DNA of 64,000 nt from a phage. The stretch's first letter is position 1. Each line of letters starts with the position of its first letter. Positions 12,959-56,624 of this stretch are shown here, piece by piece. Both the position numbers and the translations under genes were made by a program. Under the pieces are notes generated by a model that ran no database searches, was not told the origin of the DNA, and saw nothing but the letters and a program-made list of their open reading frames with translations. The DNA lies in sequence record PZ386965.1. One strand, written 5' to 3'.

Positions 12959-13210
12959 TTAGAACTTGATTTCTATCCAATGACCATCACGCTGGTCGTG
13001 ATTAATTTTATACTGAAAGCCATTATCACGTAACCACTGTCCGACTTGCTCGGTGATAGTTAAATCGTTCTTTGATGGATAGTACGTGAATTGTGTCTGG
13101 CCTTTGTCAGCGGCTTTCTCTGCCATCGCAGAGAAGTTAGTAATAAAATCTTTCAACAAATTGGCTTTAGTGGCCAGGGCCCTTTCTCTTAATTCCTGTG
13201 CAAAACTCAT
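12959..13210 (-). CDS. hypothetical protein (position of T4 24.2)
   Basis: 83-aa ORF with ATG start, coupled to the upstream ORF. Confidence 0.6.
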   Translation of the reverse strand: MSFAQELRERALATKANLLKDFITNFSAMAEKAADKGQTQFTYYPSKNDLTITEQVGQWLRDNGFQYKINHDQRDGHWIEIKF

Positions 13211-13401
13211 TTCTTCACCTTTTTGTTAATCAAACGTTTACGGTATACAACTTTTTCTTTTGCTTTAAACTTTGACCGAGCTGTCTCGGCTTTAGTCCAT
13301 AGTAATCCAACTTCTTTAGGTTGTAAACCGATTTTTTGAGCAATTTCTACGAATGAAAATCCCGCCTCATGTAATGTATAAACTTCAACTTCAGCTCTCA
13401 T
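13207..13401 (-). CDS. hypothetical small HTH-like protein (position of T4 24.3)
   Basis: Track ORF begins at TTG; the internal ATG gives a 64-aa product with a basic C-terminus. Confidence 0.55.
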   Translation of the reverse strand: MRAEVEVYTLHEAGFSFVEIAQKIGLQPKEVGLLWTKAETARSKFKAKEKVVYRKRLINKKVKK

Positions 13402-13477
13402 AATCAATCCCGTATTATTTGGTTTGTGCCATTATATACATCAATCTCAAGTTGTGTTTTGTATGCTTTAAAAACGA

Positions 13478-13502: not shown

Positions 13503-14921
13503 TTATGGATATGTATAGATGATACCAGTTTCCAAAGCAGTTTTATGGATGATGTATCCATTACGTGATTCTTGAACATCAACTTCTGGATAGTCTTTCA
13601 TCATTTTCTGAAGAGTGTAACGATGCAGGTAGTATTTACTATCTGGATCTTCAGTTTTCCAATCTTTACCTTCTTCAGTCATTTTTTGGATTTCATCCAT
13701 AACCCACCATCCGCACCAGATGTAAGCTGAAGTACGATGTGGAAGAGGATGAACATAAGGTAGTTCACCTTCTGGTTCTGGAGCAACTTTATCGGTTACC
13801 TGAACTTGACCTTCTGCTGTAATAGTTTTGCTATCGTAATCAGTTGCAGTAATAGTTGCAGTAACTTCAATAGTTTGACTTCCAATAGATGAGGTATCAA
13901 CAGTATATACATTAGTTGACCCTTCTACAGGAGAAGAATCTTTCTTCCATGAATACGCAATTTGCGCTTCTTCTGGAGCATCCGTAACATTAGCAGTAAA
14001 TGTAGCCGAAGCATCTTGCTGAACGTTAATAGAAGGAGGAGTCAATGTAACCCGTGGATTCATTGTCTTCTTATTAACCGTTAATGATACTTCATTCGAA
14101 GTAACTTCCTTTGCATCATAATCTGTCGCGGTTACTTGGGCTACACATTTAATTCTTTTTACTCCACTTGTAGTCGGAGTATAGCTAAATGTAGAGTTAG
14201 TTTCTCCACCAACCTGTGAATCATCTACATACCACTGATACGTAGCAGACGCTCCAACCGGTTGAGAAGCTAAGGCAGCAGTAAATTGAATAGCTGTTCC
14301 AATTACTCCGGCTGAAGGACTATTGGGAGTTACTGCCAACGTAGTTGTCTGTGTCTTTTTATTAACAGTCAGTGACACTTCATTAGAAGTAACGCTTAGT
14401 GCGTCATAATCTGTTGCGGTTACTTGAGCCACACACTTAATTCTTTTTACCCCGCTTTCGGCAGGAGTGTAATTGAACGTAGCGTTAGTTGCTTCGCCAA
14501 CAGGAGAATCATCTACATACCATTGATAAGTAGCGTTTGCGCCTGATGGCTGCGAAGCTAAAGCGGCAGTAAATTGAATAGCTGTTCCTATTACTCCAGC
14601 GTCAGGGCTATTAGGAGTTACAGCTAAGGTAGTCGTTTGTGTCTTGTTTTGAACTGTGATAGTTGTAGTAGCTTCTGCTGTTTCAGCTTCAGCTTCTGGA
14701 ACTGTATTTGTTGCAACTACTTTAATAGTCTTTTGACCGGCAGGTCCTTTTAGTACATAACTAAAAGTTGCTTCAGCTCCATCTTGTGGAACATCATCCA
14801 CAGACCAAGCATATGTAATAGGTCCATCTCCAGTTTGACCACTGGGTGTAGCAGTAAACTGCTTAGTCTCATCTATAACTCCAGTAGGTGTTTTAGGAGT
14901 TATATCAACTGTAAAAGCCAT
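13503..14921 (-). CDS. hoc: Hoc outer capsid decoration protein with an extra Ig-like domain
   Basis: 472 aa against 376 aa in T4; Ig-like repeats with a near-identical 96-aa tandem duplication; C-terminal capsid-binding region. Confidence 0.9.
   Translation of the reverse strand: MAFTVDITPKTPTGVIDETKQFTATPSGQTGDGPITYAWSVDDVPQDGAEATFSYVLKGPAGQKTIKVVATNTVPEAEAETAEATTTITVQNKTQTTTLAVTPNSPDAGVIGTAIQFTAALASQPSGANATYQWYVDDSPVGEATNATFNYTPAESGVKRIKCVAQVTATDYDALSVTSNEVSLTVNKKTQTTTLAVTPNSPSAGVIGTAIQFTAALASQPVGASATYQWYVDDSQVGGETNSTFSYTPTTSGVKRIKCVAQVTATDYDAKEVTSNEVSLTVNKKTMNPRVTLTPPSINVQQDASATFTANVTDAPEEAQIAYSWKKDSSPVEGSTNVYTVDTSSIGSQTIEVTATITATDYDSKTITAEGQVQVTDKVAPEPEGELPYVHPLPHRTSAYIWCGWWVMDEIQKMTEEGKDWKTEDPDSKYYLHRYTLQKMMKDYPEVDVQESRNGYIIHKTALETGIIYTYP
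14067..14642 (-). repeat. tandem duplication (2 x 288 nt) encoding Ig-like domains inside hoc
   Basis: Protein residues 94-189 and 190-285 are about 85-90 percent identical; the nucleotide repeat is visible directly. Confidence 0.85.
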
Positions 14922-29933: not shown

Positions 29934-30199
29934 TTGATGTCCTCGATTTTGGTTACGGTTCTATTATAAGCCACTTCATCTAGAAGCGATTTCAGCGTTT
30001 TCTGATAAGTTGTAATCCATTTACCGAGACCTTCAACATAATATTCTGAAATGTAGATGAACCCTTGTTCAACACACTCTTTAAATATTTCTGCGTCTTT
30101 TACTGAACGAAACAATGGCCAGTCTCGAAAGAACATGTTAACGTGACCGTAGTCACGTGTCGTGTTTTTGCCATCTGTAATATCATGAACTACAAACAT
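29930..30199 (-). CDS. hypothetical protein (position of T4 30.1)
   Basis: 89-aa ORF with ATG start, coupled to gene 30. Confidence 0.6.
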   Translation of the reverse strand: MFVVHDITDGKNTTRDYGHVNMFFRDWPLFRSVKDAEIFKECVEQGFIYISEYYVEGLGKWITTYQKTLKSLLDEVAYNRTVTKIEDIK

Positions 30200-30208
30200 A
30201 ATTAACCC

Positions 30209-31024
30209 TTAACAATTTATAGACCAAGTCCATTTGGACGAATCTAAAGGAAAGTTTTGAATTGTCCACCATGGCTGCATATCGGTTGGCCCTTGGTTTC
30301 GCCAGGTATACGGATTCGACGGAGTGCCAATTTGATTAGGCCATGCACCTGGACTTGTTGTACCAGATTCTTTAAGCAAATCCGCCAATCGTTTTAAAAG
30401 GTCTTCACGATCTGAATCTGAATTATGCTCGGGTGGAACCAAACGAGATTCAATATCATCCCACGTGTGTACACGTTGTGCAGTACGAGGAATGGCATCA
30501 CGTTCACCACGAGCCAACCAATAAATCGGTACATTAAGAATTTCTGCTGCATGGTCACAGTGATGAGCTAAATCGTCAACGTAACAAATCACGTTATATT
30601 TTGTTTTAGCTAGTTCGAATAATTGTTCCTTTGAAGAATCATGACCACACATCATTACTTCAGAGAAAGCGCCTGGGAACAAAGCATTCAAATTAAATTG
30701 TCTATTCAATCGAGCATCAATTGAATCACCTAGCGCCGTCACGGCTACAAAATTATAGTCTTCTTTTAGTTTATTGATAACTCGAAGAGCATCCGAATAA
30801 GGCGCTAAGTAACGAATAAAATCAGAGCTATTATATTTTTCTATTAATTGTTTACCAAGGTTATCGTCTGTATTGAATAGTTTACCAGGAGAAATAAATT
30901 TTTCGTCCTGAATCATTTTTAAAATATGTTCTAATGGAAGATTATATTTTTGGGCAAAATAAGGAAGTCCAGATTGCCAGCTTAAACATACACCATCAAT
31001 ATCAGTCAAAATAGTAGGTTTCAT
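30209..31024 (-). CDS. HAD-superfamily phosphatase-like protein (position of T4 30.2)
   Basis: 271 aa; N-terminal DIDGV motif (HAD motif I) and downstream DD motif; Trp-rich C-terminal tail. Confidence 0.6.
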   Translation of the reverse strand: MKPTILTDIDGVCLSWQSGLPYFAQKYNLPLEHILKMIQDEKFISPGKLFNTDDNLGKQLIEKYNSSDFIRYLAPYSDALRVINKLKEDYNFVAVTALGDSIDARLNRQFNLNALFPGAFSEVMMCGHDSSKEQLFELAKTKYNVICYVDDLAHHCDHAAEILNVPIYWLARGERDAIPRTAQRVHTWDDIESRLVPPEHNSDSDREDLLKRLADLLKESGTTSPGAWPNQIGTPSNPYTWRNQGPTDMQPWWTIQNFPLDSSKWTWSINC

Positions 31025-31479
31025 AAAGAGTCTCTTAATAGGTTTAACACATCAATAAATTCAGCTTCGGTTAGTATTGTATCATCTTTTGTTAGACCAC
31101 TAGCCATGCTGTGCTTCAAAATTTTTCCTTTAGAGGCTTGTAATGCATCACGAAACCCTTTGTTTTGGATCGCGGCTTCAAAATATGCATTTGTGTATAA
31201 TTCTTTCCATGCTTCAGAGTATCTTGAAAATGGAACTCCTAACCAGAAGAGAGTCCCACGGTCTTGAGCTCTTGCATAAGACCTTCCAGCTTGCTGTGCA
31301 GCCAGTCCTGACAGCCCAAATATACGTCTTTGTTGTTCAACATTTTTCACCTTACATCCTTGGAGAAACCCTTCAAGACCTCCGAATTGAATACCATCCA
31401 TAACAAAAGGCCATTGAGCAAAGTTACTTAATGCACATGACGGCCACTTGAAATTACTTCTTATTTCTAATTCAGACAT
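31021..31479 (-). CDS. NADAR/YbiA-like protein (position of T4 30.3)
   Basis: Track ORF begins at GTG; internal ATG gives 152 aa; the LSNFAQWPFVMDG segment resembles the E. coli YbiA FSNFAAWPIKVDG core. Confidence 0.55.
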   Translation of the reverse strand: MSELEIRSNFKWPSCALSNFAQWPFVMDGIQFGGLEGFLQGCKVKNVEQQRRIFGLSGLAAQQAGRSYARAQDRGTLFWLGVPFSRYSEAWKELYTNAYFEAAIQNKGFRDALQASKGKILKHSMASGLTKDDTILTEAEFIDVLNLLRDSL

Positions 31480-31690
31480 CTTTAACACTTATAATTTCAA
31501 CATCAGCCCAATGGCCGTATCCAGGTATACGGTCTTCGATAGATAAATTTCCGTCATTTTTAGGCATTTTAATTGACGTAACGTATGGTTCTAAACGGTT
31601 TTCTGCATAATACGGAAAAACGTCTGTTACACGATAAGTAACTTCAATCATTTCCGTACCAAACAATTTCTGGATTAGTTTATTCAACAT
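31472..31690 (-). CDS. hypothetical protein (72 aa)
   Basis: ORF with ATG start in the early 30.x cluster. Confidence 0.5.
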   Translation of the reverse strand: MLNKLIQKLFGTEMIEVTYRVTDVFPYYAENRLEPYVTSIKMPKNDGNLSIEDRIPGYGHWADVEIISVKDV

Positions 31691-31877
31691 GTTTCAACCC
31701 TTTAATAGGAGATAACTCTTTACCCATACGTATGTCAGAAGTCCCATCAACCCATTGAACAGCATACGCTTCATTGATAATTCCAGCGGCGGTTTTAAAT
31801 TCATGGAGAACTTTAAAAATCATCCCAGGGATTCCAACACCTTTTAATTGGACTGTTTGTGCTATTAAAAATTTCAT
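31680..31877 (-). CDS. hypothetical protein (65 aa)
   Basis: ORF with ATG start in the early 30.x cluster. Confidence 0.5.
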   Translation of the reverse strand: MKFLIAQTVQLKGVGIPGMIFKVLHEFKTAAGIINEAYAVQWVDGTSDIRMGKELSPIKGLKHVE

Positions 31878-31931
31878 ATTTTTCCACTTACTAAAGAAAT
31901 TATTATACTCTAATCCGTCCTTGGATGTAAA

Positions 31932-32546
31932 CTACTTAACGAAATTAATTTCTACCGGATGAACAACAGGTTGAGCAGTGATATATTGAGTAATTGCTTT
32001 CATGACTAGAGCTTCAGAACCAGGATTTTTCTCAACGAATTCACGTGCTTGGTTATGGGCTTCAAGTTCACTTAGTAAACCACTTCGTTGGCATCCACGG
32101 TCTTGAGTACCCTGTTCAGATAAAAAGACGACGATGTATTTTTCATCGTCATACGGTTTAGACGGTTGAGCAAATGTTCCTTTACTTCCAAAAGGAGAGT
32201 TATGACGCCACATCACGCCGTGAGGAGTTTCAACCTTCGTATATTCGTGCGGGCCATTTTTCTTAATTTCTTGATGTGGAACTTCGTAGACCTTAGGGTT
32301 AGGACATTCAATAAAATGCTCATCTAAATCAGTCGAGAATATTAAAGTGAAACAATTACTGAATTTACCGACACCTGCCTGATAAATTTTACCTTCAGAA
32401 GTTCTAATTTCACAAACCGAGCCGGCATCAGTAACTTCTAAAACTTCAAAAGGCTCGATAAGGTCATATGAGAACATGTTTTTAAGGCGTGGAGTAATAT
32501 CCCCATTTTTAAAATTCATTTTATAAAAAGTATTAACTTTAAACAT
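31932..32546 (-). CDS. hypothetical protein (204 aa)
   Basis: ATG with GAGG RBS; no motif recognised. Confidence 0.6.
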   Translation of the reverse strand: MFKVNTFYKMNFKNGDITPRLKNMFSYDLIEPFEVLEVTDAGSVCEIRTSEGKIYQAGVGKFSNCFTLIFSTDLDEHFIECPNPKVYEVPHQEIKKNGPHEYTKVETPHGVMWRHNSPFGSKGTFAQPSKPYDDEKYIVVFLSEQGTQDRGCQRSGLLSELEAHNQAREFVEKNPGSEALVMKAITQYITAQPVVHPVEINFVK

Positions 32547-32581
32547 AATTTCCTCAGTGGGAGCTTCGGCTCCCAGTTAAA

Positions 32582-32947
32582 TTAGATATCGAATTCGTTA
32601 AGAACTACATCAAAGATTGCTTCGAGATGTTCAGGTTTAGCTCGGTTACTCAAGATATGACGAATCCAAGTTTTAACCAGAAGTTTACGATTAACACCAT
32701 TCCAGCAAGGATGAGTACCTAAATCGCGCTGACGGAAATCATCATCTAATGCAATTTTAAAATTTGAACCTTCCATCGTGATTGAAACCGTGATGCCATT
32801 TTCAAATCGCATATAAACGTAATTAGGAGTCATGCACTGTTCGATTTCACAAACTGTACCGTTTTCGTGTTTCCATAAGCAAATAACTTCAGAAGAACCA
32901 GCAATACCGTTAGAAACATATTTACGTTCGAAGTTGATGTAGTTCAT
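32582..32947 (-). CDS. hypothetical protein (121 aa)
   Basis: ATG start; own early promoter upstream. Confidence 0.6.
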   Translation of the reverse strand: MNYINFERKYVSNGIAGSSEVICLWKHENGTVCEIEQCMTPNYVYMRFENGITVSITMEGSNFKIALDDDFRQRDLGTHPCWNGVNRKLLVKTWIRHILSNRAKPEHLEAIFDVVLNEFDI

Positions 32948-32988
32948 TTTATTCTCCAGATGTTTAAGTTGTTTGTTGGTACAGGTCT

Positions 32989-33017
32989 ATAATAACATAA
33001 CCTGTACCAAAGTAAAC
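32989..33017 (-). promoter_or_regulatory. T4-type early promoter
   Basis: GTTTAC, 17-nt spacer, TATTAT; inverted repeat TTGGTACAGGT/ACCTGTACCAA spans the element. Confidence 0.55.
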
Positions 33018-33021
33018 ATTT

Positions 33022-33393
33022 TTATTTGATTTTTGTCCACTTAGCTGAATCAATAACACCTTTTGCTTTAATCTTCTCAATTAATGACTCTGCGCGATTT
33101 CTGGCATTTTCGTACCATACAACATCTTCAGAGTAACCAGTTTCTTCATCTTCGTAAGTTTTAGAACGAATACAGCCATAAACTGTAGAATTCAGGCGGT
33201 AAATTTCACCAGTGAAAAAGTTTTCGATTTCGATATGATAACAAAAATCGTCTGAAGGGCCATCAGGAGTTGTACAATAAACCACATCACCTTGAACTGA
33301 ACGAACCATCCACTGTAACTCGTTAACAACTTGAGATTTATATCCATCATGGTCACGGCATTTAATTGTAGCATTTAAATTGATAGTGTTCAT
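33022..33393 (-). CDS. hypothetical protein (123 aa)
   Basis: Own early promoter upstream, preceded by a terminator. Confidence 0.6.
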   Translation of the reverse strand: MNTINLNATIKCRDHDGYKSQVVNELQWMVRSVQGDVVYCTTPDGPSDDFCYHIEIENFFTGEIYRLNSTVYGCIRSKTYEDEETGYSEDVVWYENARNRAESLIEKIKAKGVIDSAKWTKIK

Positions 33394-33435
33394 TTTATTC
33401 TCCGGTTGTTTTATTGATTAGGTGGTACAAGTCTA

Positions 33436-33464
33436 TAGTAACACATCCTACAGGAGAGTAAACA
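33436..33464 (-). promoter_or_regulatory. T4-type early promoter
   Basis: GTTTAC, 17-nt spacer, TACTAT. Confidence 0.55.
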
Positions 33465-33492
33465 TCTTTTTAAACTTTTTCTGCCCTAAACG

Positions 33493-33517
33493 CACAAAAG
33501 GGAGACCGAAGTCTCCC
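33493..33517 (-). terminator. terminator downstream of the small basic ORF
   Basis: GGGAGAC-UUCG-GUCUCCC then a U-run on the minus transcript. Confidence 0.7.
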
Positions 33518-33522
33518 TAAAA

Positions 33523-33702
33523 TTATGCAACAACCTTTCCAAAACGAGAAGCATCATCTCGAAGAACTGCACGTGCTCTGCGCATGATCTTCTCAACTGT
33601 TTGATTAATACGAGAGTTCGACCCACGCTTGTATCCAGCGCGTTTAGAGGTACCATCAACTTTCTTTTCAACTGCTTTCTTTGCTTTAGCTTGTTTTGCC
33701 AT
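33523..33702 (-). CDS. small highly basic protein (59 aa)
   Basis: Internal ATG gives MAKQAKAKKAVEKK..., Lys/Arg-rich; UUCG terminator directly downstream. Confidence 0.5.
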   Translation of the reverse strand: MAKQAKAKKAVEKKVDGTSKRAGYKRGSNSRINQTVEKIMRRARAVLRDDASRFGKVVA

Positions 33703-33999
33703 TATAAATTCTCTTTTAAATGAAAATGCAGGACTTATTGGCATTGCCTGCGCAAGCCCTCAAGGGGAACATAGGTTTTGGATATTTAACGACAGGATAA
33801 CCATAAACCTCGTCATCATACCAACCACGACTTAGACAGATAACCTTTTTCTGACGCGTGATAGTACAAAATACATTCAAGAGGTACACCGTAAAACTGC
33901 CGGGGTCTTAAAACTATAATGATTCGCAAATCATTAATCATACAGTTCGACGGCTCCTCGATTTTCTAGCCGCACTTAAGGTAGCGAATCACCTAAAAC

Positions 34000-34248
34000 T
34001 TATTTAAGGGTAATAACAAAATGACGTACTGCTTTACGAGCTGCAGAAGCCAAAGGCTTAGCATATTTCAGTTCATCTTTTGCTTCCAGTTCAGAGGCCA
34101 AAGCTGCCTGTACCGGGTTCAGATGTTTGAAATAACGCAGGATTTCCAGTGCTTCGGCTTCAACATCAATCGACGCGCCGTAGTTTTCGTGACCGTTATT
34201 CCATGCGTTTCGTTGCAGTTCAAGAGCGTGTTGTAATTGTTTAATCAT
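34000..34248 (-). CDS. rIII: rIII lysis inhibition accessory protein
   Basis: 82 aa, near-identical to T4 rIII. Confidence 0.95.
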   Translation of the reverse strand: MIKQLQHALELQRNAWNNGHENYGASIDVEAEALEILRYFKHLNPVQAALASELEAKDELKYAKPLASAARKAVRHFVITLK

Positions 34249-34364
34249 TTTAAATTCTCAATTCGAGATAATATTTAGTAGCCACGTTCGTCTGAATTTC
34301 ACCTTCTTTCGACAAGTCTCTCAGTTGTAGGCTACCGCTTAGAAGAGTGTTCTCTTCATATAGT

Positions 34365-34372
34365 TATTTATA
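34365..34372 (-). promoter_or_regulatory. late promoter upstream of rIII
   Basis: TATAAATA on the minus strand between gene 31 and rIII. Confidence 0.5.
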
Positions 34373-34705
34373 TCACTTATAAAGACACGGAATAGCTTTA
34401 TAGTGGCATGTTACGAATTTCTGTTTAATTTCTTTAGGTTGTTTAAGTCCCAAAGCCACAAATGGATGTGGAACATTTCGAATTTGTCCAACTGGTAGTG
34501 AAGTCAAATCACCGACTTCAACAAAACCTTCAGGAACATCAGGACCTACAGAATGAACTACACATAGTTCAGGAACTTCACCTTGAACACGTTTACCAAT
34601 CACAAGTCCTGATTCGGTAACTTCTTCATCACCTGCTTGAGCGGGTTCAGAAACCAGAATGACATATTCACCAACAGCACGAATTGGGAGTTGTACTTCA
34701 GACAT
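34373..34705 (-). CDS. 31: gp31 co-chaperonin (GroES-like)
   Basis: 110 aa, T4 gp31 size and position. Confidence 0.9.
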
Positions 34706-34735
34706 CTTATTTCCTTGTTGTTTGACGATAGATTA

Positions 34736-34762
34736 ATAATACCATACTATTCGTAAAGCATA
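34736..34762 (-). promoter_or_regulatory. MotA-dependent middle promoter for gene 31
   Basis: Minus strand TATGCTTTA MotA box, 12-nt spacer, TATTAT. Confidence 0.5.
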
Positions 34763-35059
34763 TTACATAAGAAGCAAACGTTCTACCGGAGTACCATCAA
34801 CAGAAATTACTTTATCAAGGCGGAAAGAACGCCACTGACCTAACTCGGTATCGAATGCTCGAACTGATTCACGAGGTTCATAACGAACTTCTGTTGCCGG
34901 ATTGTTATTTTCATATTTGACTTCAAGTTCATCGCGCGAAGCAAACATAGTGCGTACCTCGCCGTTAGCCTTTTCAAATACAACACAATGAACGCCTACA
35001 GACAGAATAGTTTTAATACGTTCACGAAGAACCATAGTTTCTTGTTCAGTTAAAATCAT
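34763..35059 (-). CDS. hypothetical protein (31.1/31.2 position)
   Basis: Track ORF begins at GTG; internal ATG gives 98 aa. Confidence 0.6.
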   Translation of the reverse strand: MILTEQETMVLRERIKTILSVGVHCVVFEKANGEVRTMFASRDELEVKYENNNPATEVRYEPRESVRAFDTELGQWRSFRLDKVISVDGTPVERLLLM

Positions 35060-35060
35060 A

Positions 35061-35642
35061 TTATTCACCACAAAAGTTTCGGATTTGTTCCCAATTCAGA
35101 GAACGAAGATTATTACGAGAGTACTGAATTACTTCAATACCGGCTTGTTTTAGAATGTCTGCCCAATTTTCAGGAGATCTGTCATATAATTCTGCATATA
35201 CAACCTTTTTAATACCTGACTGTGTAATAGCTTTAGTGCAATCAGGACATGGAGAAAGCGTCGTATACAACGTAGCACCTTCAATAGAATTACCTTTACG
35301 AGCTGCAAACAAAATTGCATTCAATTCCGCATGGATTTCATTATTAGCAGACCATGCACTATGAGCGGCCCGATGTTCTTTAGCCAAAACAAAATTATCC
35401 ACCCGTCCAAATGCTGTAGTGCCTTCTTTATGCCCAGCAACGATGACCGGGCTTGGTTTATTCTTCAACCAACCGTTTTCGGATGCATGTTCGCAACAGT
35501 TTGTACCACCTGAAGGAGAGCCATTATAACCTGTAGAAATAATGCGTCCATCTTTTTCAATGACGGCACCAACTTTCCATGAACAACATTTTGATTCTTG
35601 AGAAATCAGATAAGCAATCTGAAGATATGTGCTAGCTTTCAT
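35061..35642 (-). CDS. cd: dCMP deaminase
   Basis: 193 aa, same as T4 Cd; HAE and PCxxC zinc-binding deaminase motifs. Confidence 0.93.
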   Translation of the reverse strand: MKASTYLQIAYLISQESKCCSWKVGAVIEKDGRIISTGYNGSPSGGTNCCEHASENGWLKNKPSPVIVAGHKEGTTAFGRVDNFVLAKEHRAAHSAWSANNEIHAELNAILFAARKGNSIEGATLYTTLSPCPDCTKAITQSGIKKVVYAELYDRSPENWADILKQAGIEVIQYSRNNLRSLNWEQIRNFCGE

Positions 35643-36634
35643 TATTGAACCTTATTAATATGAGTTAACAGCTCTTTAGTTTGTTCCCAACTGATGCACG
35701 CATCGGTAACGGAAACGCCATAGGACATATTATCAGAAATTTTTTGATTTCCTTCATGTAGGAATGATTCTATCATAATTCCTTTGACCAAATCATTAGC
35801 TGCTAAATTTTTACCAATACCAATTTGATTGCTATAATGCCCAGCAGCGTTTGCATGGCTACAGTCAACCATTACATAATGATTCAGACCTACGGCCCTT
35901 GCTTTGTTAGAAGCTTCTTGAATATCAGAAGAATGATAGTTCGGGCCATTGGTCCCGCCACGCAATACGATATGCGTATTCTGATTACCTTCAGCTTCAA
36001 CAATGCCTACAGTACCATCGACGTCCATACCCATATACCGATGAGGCCAGGCGGCACTATACATCGCGTCTGTAGCTACTTTAATAGAACCATTGGTTGC
36101 GTTCTTGAAGCCTACGCACATCGGTAGACCTGAAGCAATTTCACGATGTGTCTGACTTTCAGTCGTACGGGCGCCAATAGCAACCCATGAGAAAATACCA
36201 GAAAGATACTTAATCGTGAATGGGTCTAATACTTCAGTTGCTAATGGAAGTCCCATACGTAGAAGTTTACGACACAATGTTCGTGCAACTATAAGACCGT
36301 GGTTCATATCAAAACTTCCGTCAAGATATGGATCATTTACAAGACCTTTCCAACCTACGGTAGTTCGAGGCTTTTCAAAATAAACGCGCATCACTAACAG
36401 AACATTAGGAAGACGAGTTTGAAGTTCAGCCAGACGTTTGCCGTATTCAACAGCAGCAATAGGGTCATGAATTGAACAAGGACCTACAACAATAAGTTTG
36501 CGTGGGTCTTCACCATTCATAATCGAATTAACTTGTTCGCGATGAGAAGCCACTTGTGATGCGTAAGCTTCCGACAAAGGAATAATCTCAGCCAGTTCTT
36601 TTGGAGAAATAAGTTTTCCGACGACAGGTAACAT
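35642..36634 (-). CDS. 3-deoxy-D-arabino-heptulosonate-7-phosphate (DAHP) synthase, AroG/AroF-type
   Basis: 330 aa; LIVVGPCSIHD, RVYFEKPRTTVGWKGL and WVAIGARTTESQ blocks align with E. coli AroG; N-terminus about 8 residues shorter than AroG; not present in T4. Confidence 0.85.
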   Translation of the reverse strand: MLPVVGKLISPKELAEIIPLSEAYASQVASHREQVNSIMNGEDPRKLIVVGPCSIHDPIAAVEYGKRLAELQTRLPNVLLVMRVYFEKPRTTVGWKGLVNDPYLDGSFDMNHGLIVARTLCRKLLRMGLPLATEVLDPFTIKYLSGIFSWVAIGARTTESQTHREIASGLPMCVGFKNATNGSIKVATDAMYSAAWPHRYMGMDVDGTVGIVEAEGNQNTHIVLRGGTNGPNYHSSDIQEASNKARAVGLNHYVMVDCSHANAAGHYSNQIGIGKNLAANDLVKGIMIESFLHEGNQKISDNMSYGVSVTDACISWEQTKELLTHINKVQ

Positions 36635-36991: not shown

Positions 36992-37020
36992 TCTGTTTTC
37001 CTCATTGTGTTGGTAGAGTC

Positions 37021-37050
37021 ATAGTATCACAACTCCACCATGTTGTAAAC
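37021..37050 (-). promoter_or_regulatory. T4-type early promoter for the 78-aa ORF / DAHP synthase / cd unit
   Basis: GTTTAC, 18-nt spacer, TACTAT. Confidence 0.55.
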
Positions 37051-48243: not shown

Positions 48244-48270
48244 AACTTTTTCGGTAATTTATAGATACTC

Positions 48271-48292
48271 AAAAGGGAGACCGAAGTCTCCC
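48271..48292 (-). terminator. terminator downstream of gene 32
   Basis: GGGAGAC-UUCG-GUCUCCC then a U-run, same hairpin as at 33500. Confidence 0.7.
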
Positions 48293-56600: not shown

Positions 56601-56624
56601 GGGAGACTTCGGTCTCCCATTTTT
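56601..56624 (+). terminator. terminator after gene 35
   Basis: GGGAGAC-TTCG-GTCTCCC followed by TTTTT. Confidence 0.75.

Follow-up and report, generated by a model that had tools for sequence, protein, structure and literature searches.

Does the set of small early genes at a phage locus reflect exchange at the regulatory modules repeated between them? The question is raised by five consecutive ORFs within a 64,000-nucleotide stretch of phage DNA (record PZ386965.1; referred to here as the window), which a preliminary description, made from the letters alone, had presented as a cassette-like array whose repeated promoter and leader modules could drive recombination. On comparison with related phages, we consider it highly probable that the locus is a T-even 30.x early array in which repeated modules of the promoter-early stem-loop (PeSL) type mark points of gene swapping and deletion.

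Gene content of the 30.x array

Sequence similarity places the source of the window among the Mosigviruses, as an RB69-like T-even coliphage; nucleotide identity is 95.8% with Shigella phage phi25-307 and around 93-94% with many other members of the group. The flagged ORFs, the coordinates of which had been given exactly, constitute the T-even 30.x early-gene array, with orthologues of T4 30.8, 30.7, 30.5 and 30.4 (Table 1), and the annotation parallels mar005P1, T4 and RB69 gene for gene. All five ORFs lie on the minus strand and the array is transcribed leftward. It had been stated that the ORFs carry no recognizable motifs, which is inaccurate: the 30.8 protein matches PF06019 over its full length (E 1e-74, 248.5 bits against a cut-off of 25), the 30.7 protein likewise matches PF06919 (E 2e-51, 172.9 bits against a cut-off of 27) and all five belong to PHROG families, no assigned function being attached to these Pfam and PHROG entries. 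A search of the NCBIfam profiles gave no matches, a PDB sequence search with 30.8, 30.7 and the 204-aa ORF returned nothing below E 0.1, and structure searches on the array proteins found no usable analogue.

Table 1. Positions of genes, modules and hairpins of the array in the window; promoter elements and starts are predictions.
Feature	Position	Strand	Description
Gene 30.8	33022-33393	-	123 aa; Pfam Phage_30_8
Gene 30.7	32582-32947	-	121 aa; Pfam Phage_T4_Gp30_7
204-aa ORF in 30.6 slot	31932-32546	-	phrog_17531
Gene 30.5	31680-31877	-	65 aa; phrog_1690
Gene 30.4	31472-31690	-	72 aa; phrog_2042; start overlaps end of 30.5
P30.8 module	33394-33487	-	A-rich tract, -35 GTTTAC (33458-33463), GT-rich extended -10, -10 TACTAT (33435-33440), predicted start near 33428, leader, SD GGAG (33400-33403), ATG
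P30.7 module	32948-33021	-	Pattern match; -35 GTTTAC (33012-33017), -10 TATTAT (32989-32994), predicted start near 32982, SD GGAG (32954-32957); embedded hairpin
P30.5 promoter/leader	31878-31934	-	-35 GTTTAC (31927-31932), -10 TATAAT (31902-31907), predicted start near 31895
UUCG-loop hairpin	33495-33517	-	GGGAGACTTCGGTCTCCC + TTTTG; directly after 30.9, upstream of P30.8; terminator-like
P30.7 hairpin	32976-33010	-	Begins just past -35 box, encloses -10 box
Hairpin after 30.7	32558-32575	-	TGGGAGC-CGAA-GCTCCCA; followed by ACTGAGGAAATT and ATG of next ORF

A map of the slots in 37 arrays shows a constant scaffold of 30.9, 30.8, 30.7, 30.5 and 30.2 with varying inserts. Gene 30.7 belongs to the conserved scaffold, with 995 phage records containing it; a recent transfer, suspected from the 93% identity of its protein to that of T4, was rejected, since its nucleotide identity to T4 (82.6%) resembles that of the flanks. 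Gene 30.4, named gp30.4 in mar005P1, is found in 721 phage records. The 204-aa ORF, on the other hand, is a variable cassette: only eight relatives were retrieved among 1.8 billion representatives, and six by a word-indexed search. It apparently comprises two domains, and its AlphaFold model has a pLDDT of 56.

Gene 30.5 is missing from RB69, and its allele in the window is found at 90% identity or more in 115 records, about as many as the 204-aa ORF. In the literature on gp30.4 to gp30.9, a function was found for 30.5 only: the T4 protein is reported to bind, or co-purify with, the host polyphosphate kinase Ppk and to activate the bacterial defence protein bNACHT11 (bioRxiv 10.1101/2024.12.17.629029). 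The 30.5 protein of the window shows 64% identity to the T4 protein across 64 of its 65 residues, stands at the same place upstream of 30.4 and would, by orthology, bind host polyphosphate kinase. The host-takeover role proposed earlier for these ORFs is backed for 30.5, through the experiments on its T4 orthologue; we conjecture that the other array proteins are probably small host-protein binders as well.

Promoters, leaders and hairpins

The window contains 13 sites with the pattern GTTTAC-N15-19-TANNAT, every one of them on the minus strand, where 1.5 +/- 1.2 would be expected by chance (13 or more in none of 100 shuffles), and the sites stand 5' of orthologues of the early genes asiA, rnh, frd.2, rnlA, alc, cd.2 and alt.-3. 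The reported recurrence of this promoter class upstream of alc, alt.-3 (DUF5498), frd.2 and, through cd.2, the DAHP synthase unit was borne out. Within the array, 30.8, 30.7 and 30.5 have their own T4-type early promoter (GTTTAC-N17-18-TAnnAT). Two copies had been recognized previously and the one 5' of 30.5 had been overlooked; the claim that each ORF stands behind a promoter is wrong, because the 204-aa ORF and 30.4 have none of their own. No MotA-box or late promoter was found inside the array. The activity of the promoters, their start sites and the termination of transcription are predictions from sequence, the start of P30.8 being placed by promoter spacing.

Beyond the hexamers, the consensus includes an A-tract, with 0.6-1.1 bits of information at about -39 to -42, and a GT-rich stretch at -17 to -13. 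This agrees with published descriptions of the early promoters of T4 and RB69, in which GTTTAC is accompanied by an A-rich segment at -40 to -44 and a GT-rich stretch before -12 (Nolan et al., 2006; PMC1524935). The repeated module is an extended T4-type early promoter (A-tract, GTTTAC, GT-rich extended -10, TAYWAT) followed by a short leader and an SD sequence.

The modules had been called near-identical, which our alignment shows to be an overstatement. The closest pair, P30.8 and P30.7, forms a direct repeat of 111 nt (32931-33041 versus 33377-33487) with 73% ungapped and 78% gapped identity, that is, 73-78% over about 100-111 nt. The remaining early modules are 54-70% identical to these two and among themselves, the common part being the extended early-promoter consensus only; outside the hexamers, similarity is 0.54 upstream, 0.55 in the spacer and 0.60 downstream, compared with 0.49-0.53 for random segments. 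A conserved leader ending in a GTTGTTGAT-like sequence, which reads TATCAACAACAYGAGGA on the coding strand, had also been attributed to the modules. It holds for alt.-3, alc and frd.2, the only sites with at most one mismatch, and more weakly for cd.2, with three mismatches (six matches against 0.45 expected); P30.8 and P30.7 have just a loose version of it, their own common leader terminating in GGAGAATAAAATGAA, with GGAGAATAAAATG as the 3' end of both modules. The proteins encoded by 30.8 and 30.7 show, by eye, no similarity past the first residues (MNxIN), which are themselves part of the common module.

Up to the ATG, the P30.8 module is 97-100% identical to those of mar005P1 and RB69, and the P30.7 module is 86-88% identical to its T4 and SP18 counterparts. 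The Mosigvirus P30.8 module has a similarity of 0.75-0.81 to P30.7 modules but of only 0.64-0.67 to P30.8 of T4 or SP18, and within T4 the window P30.8 is best matched by the module of 30.7 rather than by that of 30.8. The Mosigvirus P30.8 module is of the P30.7 type, and looks like a copy of P30.7.

Three hairpins accompany these elements. The UUCG hairpin (-14.1 kcal/mol, z -3.0), found at the matching position in RB69 and Serratia phage CHI14, represents the stem-loop component of a PeSL-type module; an exact second copy (48270-48292, minus strand) precedes the frd.2 promoter, and a copy with two mismatches lies at 56601-56623 on the plus strand. The hairpin after 30.7 (-12.2 kcal/mol, z -2.7) and the SD sequence behind it form a junction that is the upstream limit of a variable slot, and the same type of junction occurs in T4, RB69, SP18 and CHI14. 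Neither this hairpin nor that after 30.8, which lies within P30.7, is followed by a T-run. P30.5 has no associated hairpin (z -0.9) and is therefore a promoter-only module. Elsewhere in the region, the conserved non-coding spacer between rIII and 30.9 folds no better than shuffled sequences (z -0.26), and an Rfam scan of positions 30000-36000 at E<=1 yielded a single chance-level match, far under the gathering score.

The P30.7 hairpin (-17.9 kcal/mol, z -4.6) was found in 25 of 27 distinct modules, taken from the window and 33 IMG/VR loci, with a mean z of -4.7. Its 5' arm starts 4 nt past the -35 box and the -10 box is always enclosed, although the genera differ in stem sequence, of which there are six or more unrelated versions. 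With four reference modules added, stem positions +4 to +10 each show three to four pair types in a fixed 5' arm register, so that the hairpin covaries between genera. In phages of the Karamvirus type, pairing extends to the Shine-Dalgarno sequence. We tentatively propose, as a possibility still short of even odds, that the hairpin is a selected regulatory element rather than a by-product of the promoter and that it sorts transcripts by their start. RNA reading through from upstream promoters would form it, which would protect the 3' end or cause attenuation and, in certain genera, occlude the ribosome-binding site, while RNA begun at P30.7 would be without the 5' arm and stay open. The hairpin could double as a favoured crossover point for cassette exchange.

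Gene replacement at module and gene boundaries

Upon infection, host sigma-70 RNA polymerase would immediately fire P30.8, P30.7 and P30.5. The UUCG hairpin and its T-run would terminate transcription arriving through 30.9, and the hairpins devoid of a T-run would most likely be 3'-end or attenuator structures on read-through RNA, so that short nested transcripts would supply the small proteins within minutes of infection. Every gene is flanked by these modules and hairpin/SD junctions, which recur in related phages co-infecting the same cell, and gene boundaries are thereby furnished with short homologous segments; recombination there can replace, insert or delete whole ORFs and keep their expression.

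Gene 30.8 is one case. Its protein is only about 39-40% identical to T4-type proteins, and among the relatives compared the coding sequence is an island of 55-70% identity between flanks of 97-100%; the edges of the island coincide with the SD/ATG of the 30.8 module and the -35 box of the 30.7 module. This makes 30.8 an exchangeable allele. Deletion through two modules is known from relatives and not from the window phage: the relative designated L038 is without 30.8 and one further ORF, both of which are present in L037, and its junction joins the L037 P30.8 module to 30.7 inside the common ACGGAGAAT...ATGAA block.

The second variable position is the 30.6 slot, where the 204-aa ORF replaces, and is unrelated to, T4 30.6. 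Homology to both RB69 and T4 stops 7 nt into the ORF, at 32540. Compared with T4, the ORF and a promoter replace 30.6 exactly from ATG to ATG, homology being regained at the 30.5 ATG (31877); compared with RB69, the limits are the ATG of the 204-aa ORF and the 30.4 start, homology (95% at the nucleotide level) resuming at 31693, 3 nt ahead of the 30.4 ATG. Not all breakpoints are in promoters: this replacement extends from a hairpin/SD/ATG junction to the start codon of the following gene, and its downstream breakpoints fall outside any repeated promoter module. The -35 box of P30.5, the best sigma-70 match of the region (11/12), overlaps the TAG stop of the 204-aa ORF. In T4 and SP18, no promoter is present at this position, since 30.6 and 30.5 abut or overlap, and P30.5 travels with the 204-aa cassette. 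In SP18, a 30.6A-type gene stands between two terminator hairpins.

As shown by comparison between relatives, whole ORFs have been replaced, inserted and deleted at module or junction boundaries. The proximity to indels and replacements that is typical of PeSLs is seen in the 30.8 island, in the 30.6/204-aa/30.5 slot of the window, RB69 and T4, and in the map of 37 arrays. The earlier view of the ORFs as separately promoted early genes in a variable T-even region is supported, as is that of module-driven exchange.

The latter could nevertheless be doubted. The modules may simply be strong early promoters held alike by RNA polymerase selection, with no part in recombination, the swaps arising from general recombination in the flanks and being trimmed to whole genes by selection. 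T4-type phages recombine at high frequency in any case. Moreover, most module pairs are barely above random outside the hexamers, and identities of 54-70% over whole modules may be too low for homologous recombination to be efficient; most of the common consensus could be accounted for by functional constraint alone, and the 204-aa replacement ends at start codons and not in a promoter. However, the limits of the 30.8 island are only a few bases from the SD/ATG and -35 elements although the nearly identical flanks offered far more homology, the L038 junction lies inside a short block common to two non-allelic modules, and the Mosigvirus P30.8 module resembles a copy of P30.7. We therefore regard promoter selection without a recombination role as unlikely, and homologous or microhomology recombination as the best explanation of exchange in the array.

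A site-specific, integron-like system, in which the stem-loops would serve as sites for a dedicated recombinase, is very improbable. Stem-loops do recur at the cassette boundaries, and site-specific recombination was kept possible for PeSLs by Arbiol et al. (in the introduction of PMC4122927), but array cassettes carry their own promoters, unlike those of integrons, and the stem sequences vary by slot and covary freely, which is unexpected for a recombinase recognition site. The sole mapped junction, that of L038, is in the SD-ATG block and not in a stem-loop, and no integrase-like gene was present among the neighbouring genes examined. Finally, although the ORFs are short and most are without known function or structural analogue, the idea that they are non-functional spacer between promoters is scarcely credible and effectively refuted, as each family is conserved in 121 to 1038 phage genomes, 30.7 is 93% identical between genera in protein against 83% in DNA, 30.8 is predicted to fold with a pLDDT of 91 and T4 30.5 has experimental phenotypes.

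Significance and relation to known systems

The preferred reading, recombination at repeated modules and junctions, makes this locus a clean natural example of the exchange of whole early genes at regulatory junctions by T4-like phages, with three outcomes in one place: allele replacement, non-homologous replacement and deletion. The distinction between variable genes (the 30.8 allele, the 204-aa ORF and 30.5) and the fixed 30.7 may guide the choice of candidates for host-takeover and defence screens, a choice that is timely given that T4 30.5 binds a host enzyme and is sensed by a bacterial NLR-like protein. No new question is opened, since both the mechanism and the genes have been published and over a hundred GenBank genomes contain them. 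The observation is real, ordinary and essentially known, and the idea of cassette exchange is that of the published PeSL model (PMC2839356 and PMC4122927).

Integron arrays likewise consist of small single-gene units that are exchangeable, lie in linear series and have structured boundaries; in contrast to their promoterless cassettes, attC sites and adjacent integrase, the present array has no attC sites and no integrase among the neighbouring genes, and three of its cassettes have their own promoters. A nearer parallel is provided by the IP loci of T-even phages, where, as cited in two later papers, small non-essential genes for early or injected proteins are shuffled at elements containing T4 early promoters and weak stem-loops (Repoila et al., 1994, in PMC2839356 and PMC4122927). 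Those loci are located elsewhere, and the array proteins are apparently without an IP-type leader and are not known to be packaged. In the T4 30.x cluster itself (NC_000866), gene order and the promoter positions before 30.8 and 30.7 are as in the window, which differs in the replacement of 30.6 by the 204-aa ORF, adding a promoter before 30.5, and in a P30.8 module of the P30.7 type.

The closest likeness is to the PeSLs described in RB49 and phi1 (Arbiol et al., 2010; PMC2839356) and in PST/T4 and nt-1/KVP40 (Comeau et al., 2014; PMC4122927), in the available text of which no mention of the 30.x locus was found. A PeSL is further characterized by demonstrated promoter and attenuator activity and by mini-circles that inverse PCR can detect (at a frequency of about 1e-5 in RB49), properties that the 30.x modules may share. 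A PeSL combines an AT-rich tract, an early promoter, a stem-loop, an SD sequence and an ATG, the composite also seen here, and P30.8, P30.7 and P30.5 all fit the T-even consensus TTTACW-N17-TAYWAT in the -35 box, the spacer of about 17 nt and the -10 box. The setting, a variable region beside indels and replacements, is shared as well. The published stem-loops of T4 and PST lie upstream of the promoter, an arrangement with which P30.8 agrees, while that of RB49 can overlap the -10 box, as does the -10-enclosing hairpin of P30.7; P30.5 is free of a stem-loop. The published PeSL crossovers are placed between the -10 box and the ATG, and the L038 junction, in the SD-ATG block, matches those of the RB49 mini-circles (PMC2839356).

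Gene content of the 30.x array

The window derives from a Mosigvirus (RB69 group of T-even phages); over 31000-34300 it shows 95.8% identity to Shigella phage phi25-307 and about 93-94% to dozens of Mosigvirus genomes. The small ORFs under study are gene-for-gene counterparts of the T4 cluster downstream of rIII and 30.9, all on the minus strand. They had been described as lacking recognisable motifs, which does not hold: 30.8 and 30.7 match the Pfam families PF06019 and PF06919, respectively, over their full length, and all five ORFs fall into PHROG families, none of the families matched having an assigned function. The 204-aa ORF gave no match in Pfam or NCBIfam and yielded no reliable structure model; a confident model of 30.8 (pLDDT 91) retrieved no convincing analogue in a structure search.

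Features of the 30.x array and of other parts of the window (window coordinates unless a locus is named)
Feature	Coordinates	Strand	Remark
30.8	33022-33393	-	
30.7	32582-32947	-	
204-aa ORF	31932-32546	-	occupies place of T4 30.6
30.5	31680-31877	-	
30.4	31472-31690	-	
30.3	31021-31488	-	PF08010; conserved scaffold gene just outside the region
30.2	30209-31024	-	weak HAD-like match; conserved scaffold gene just outside the region
UUCG hairpin GGGAGACTTCGGTCTCCC	33495-33517	-	exact 23-mer
UUCG hairpin GGGAGACTTCGGTCTCCC	48270-48292	-	exact 23-mer, before frd.2 promoter
UUCG hairpin GGGAGACTTCGGTCTCCC	56601-56623	+	2 mismatches
cd.2 promoter hairpin GGTGGAGTTGTGATACTATGACTCTACC	36992-37050	-	encloses -10 box; z -4.0
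rIII-30.9 spacer	33703-33999	-	non-coding, ~300 nt
DAHP synthase	35642-36634	-	330 aa; PF00793, E 6e-75; between cd and cd.2
13th promoter match	13299-13328	-	apparently in small ORF 13207-13407
Tandem duplication	14064-14639		288 nt, 78% identity; in 472-aa minus-strand ORF 13503-14921
Natural 30.8 deletion	L038 2405-2525 vs L037 1395-1510 and 2405-2525		IMG/VR T-even genome

Within the literature searched, experimental data on proteins of the array were found for T4 30.5 alone (bioRxiv 10.1101/2024.12.17.629029): this protein activates bNACHT11, an NLR-related protein of bacteria, and is co-purified with the polyphosphate kinase of the host. The 30.5 protein of the window is 64% identical to its T4 counterpart. 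Because of T4 30.5, and by analogy, our working view is that the array products may be small, early-expressed binders of host factors. The GGAG Shine-Dalgarno (SD) sequences of 30.8 and 30.7 are presumably of the kind cleaved by the T4 endoribonuclease RegB; such cleavage would suit a short burst of early expression.

Several neighbouring features were recorded separately. The rIII-30.9 spacer, part of a segment with 82% identity to T4, contains an insertion relative to that phage and is longer in SP18 (397 nt); it gave no match in Rfam and folds no better than random (z -0.26). The DAHP synthase gene is missing at the cd/cd.2 position in RB69 and in the examined strain of mar005P1; homologues, already annotated as such, occur in 213 phage records. 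The tandem duplication probably encodes repeated protein domains.

Promoter modules

The early-promoter pattern GTTTAC-N15-19-TANNAT has 13 matches in the window against 1.5 expected, exclusively on the minus strand, and a minus-strand start codon lies shortly downstream of 12 matches. The 13th, apparently not in an intergenic gap, may have arisen by chance or be an internal site. The genes behind the matches include orthologues of the classic T4 early genes asiA, rnh, frd.2, rnlA, alc, cd.2 (with DAHP synthase after it) and alt.-3. When aligned at their -10 boxes, the modules have more in common than the hexamers: A-rich sequence around -40, GT-rich sequence directly 5' of the -10 box and a weak AGAC-like start region, in agreement with published features of T4 and RB69 early promoters (PMC1524935).

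Three promoters lie in the array itself, 5' of 30.8, 30.7 and 30.5 (P30.8, P30.7 and P30.5), where the preliminary description had counted two module copies and placed each ORF behind a promoter; none matching the pattern was found for the 204-aa ORF or 30.4. The recurrence elsewhere in the window stands for the promoter class at alc, alt.-3, frd.2 and cd.2; DAHP synthase has no module directly in front and is separated from the preceding cd.2 by a 120-nt gap.

The modules of 30.8 and 30.7 are copies of a 111-nt direct repeat that extends from the A-tract through nucleotide 17 of either coding sequence, with 73% identity ungapped and 78% gapped; over the 40 nt downstream, they rank first among the 78 promoter pairs of the window (0.82; mean 0.60). 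The remaining module pairs show 54-70% identity and, with the hexamers left out, are just slightly above random likeness, so that 'near-identical' fits the 30.8/30.7 pair loosely and not the class. The proposed conserved leader, GTTGTTGAT on the plus strand and TATCAACAACAYGAGGA on the coding strand, is near-exact at alt.-3, alc and frd.2 and looser at cd.2, but 30.8 and 30.7 carry at most a loose version of it and have a common leader of their own ending in GGAGAATAAAATGAA. The observation is real and well above chance, with its details overstated.

Proposed exchange of genes and modules

Comparative evidence supports the proposal that the modules could mediate cassette exchange. Relative to mar005P1, identity is 97-100% on either side of 30.8 and 55-70% inside its coding sequence, with the switch at most a few bases away from the SD/ATG at the upstream end and, at the other, from the stop codon and the -35 box of P30.7. 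RB69 carries the same allele, which reaches at least 95% identity in just 24 of 1038 phage records; the allele of most Mosigviruses is about 57% identical to it, those of T4-type phages about 39-40%, and the nearest others, from Kosakonia and Erwinia phages, 74-75%. This pattern supports an allele replacement at 30.8.

A natural deletion also speaks for cassette exchange: the IMG/VR locus L038 lacks 30.8 and an adjoining ORF, both present in its close relative L037, and its junction fuses the P30.8 module of L037 to the 30.7 coding sequence, placing 30.7 behind the 30.8 promoter. The crossover falls inside ACGGAGAAT...ATGAA, the SD-ATG block shared by both modules. Furthermore, Mosigvirus P30.8 resembles P30.7 modules of any genus (0.75-0.81) more than P30.8 of T4 or SP18 (0.64-0.67), which supports module conversion.

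In the 30.6 slot, homology to T4 ends 7 nt into the 204-aa ORF (ATGTTTA, common with 30.6) and returns exactly at the ATG of 30.5, for which T4 has no promoter; the insert therefore comprises the 204-aa ORF and the 30.5 promoter. With RB69, in which 30.6 is present and 30.5 absent, homology returns 3 nt before the 30.4 ATG. The 204-aa ORF is carried by 121 phage records and the matching 30.5 allele by about as many (115). The C-terminal half of the 204-aa ORF is homologous to small proteins encoded between 30.9 and 30.8 in SP18 (gp30.6A, the gene being flanked by two similar terminator hairpins), CkP1 and a metagenomic T-even contig, and in another phage the slot after 30.7 holds a relative that is shorter but matches the protein as a whole, which supports movement of such genes between slots. 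Across 37 mapped arrays, 30.9, 30.8, 30.7, 30.5 and 30.2 form a constant scaffold and variable genes occupy three slots.

Hairpins and comparison with PeSL cassettes

Between 30.9 and P30.8 lies a hairpin with a UUCG loop and a short T-run (z -3.0), at a position unchanged in RB69 and in a phage of another genus, Serratia phage CHI14. A second hairpin (z -2.7), 3' of 30.7, is followed directly by the SD and ATG that serve the 204-aa ORF.

P30.7 contains a hairpin (-17.9 kcal/mol, z -4.6) that has the -10 box inside it and begins immediately past the -35 box. With 33 further 30.7-encoding loci from IMG/VR, the fold was found in 25 of 27 distinct modules, that of the window included (mean z -4.7). 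When four reference modules (T4, RB69, SP18 and CHI14) were added, the first base of the 5' arm was in every case the fourth past the -35 box; three or four pair types were seen at each of the stem positions +4 to +10, and the stems fell into six or more unrelated sequences. The SD sequence and the 3' arm overlap in Karamvirus-type phages. Transcripts initiated at P30.7, whose start is predicted near 32982, cannot include the 5' arm; any action of the structure in RNA would therefore fall on transcripts reading through from upstream. Among the other promoters of the window, that of cd.2 alone has a hairpin of comparable strength, which resembles that of P30.7.

The literature consulted yielded no description of the covarying P30.7 hairpin. 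According to Arbiol et al. (2010; PMC2839356), composite promoter/stem-loop/SD cassettes (promoter-early stem-loops, PeSLs) flank variable ORFs in RB49 and phi1, and circles arise there by crossover in the interval from the -10 box to the ATG. Comeau et al. (2014; PMC4122927) extended the model to T4 and PST, with the consensus TTTACW-N17-TAYWAT. Genes and mechanism had thus already been described. Judged by sequence and context, the modules of the array fit the PeSL family, and the exchange proposed for the 30.x array corresponds to the PeSL model; the P30.7 hairpin belongs to the -10-enclosing type known from RB49 PeSLs.
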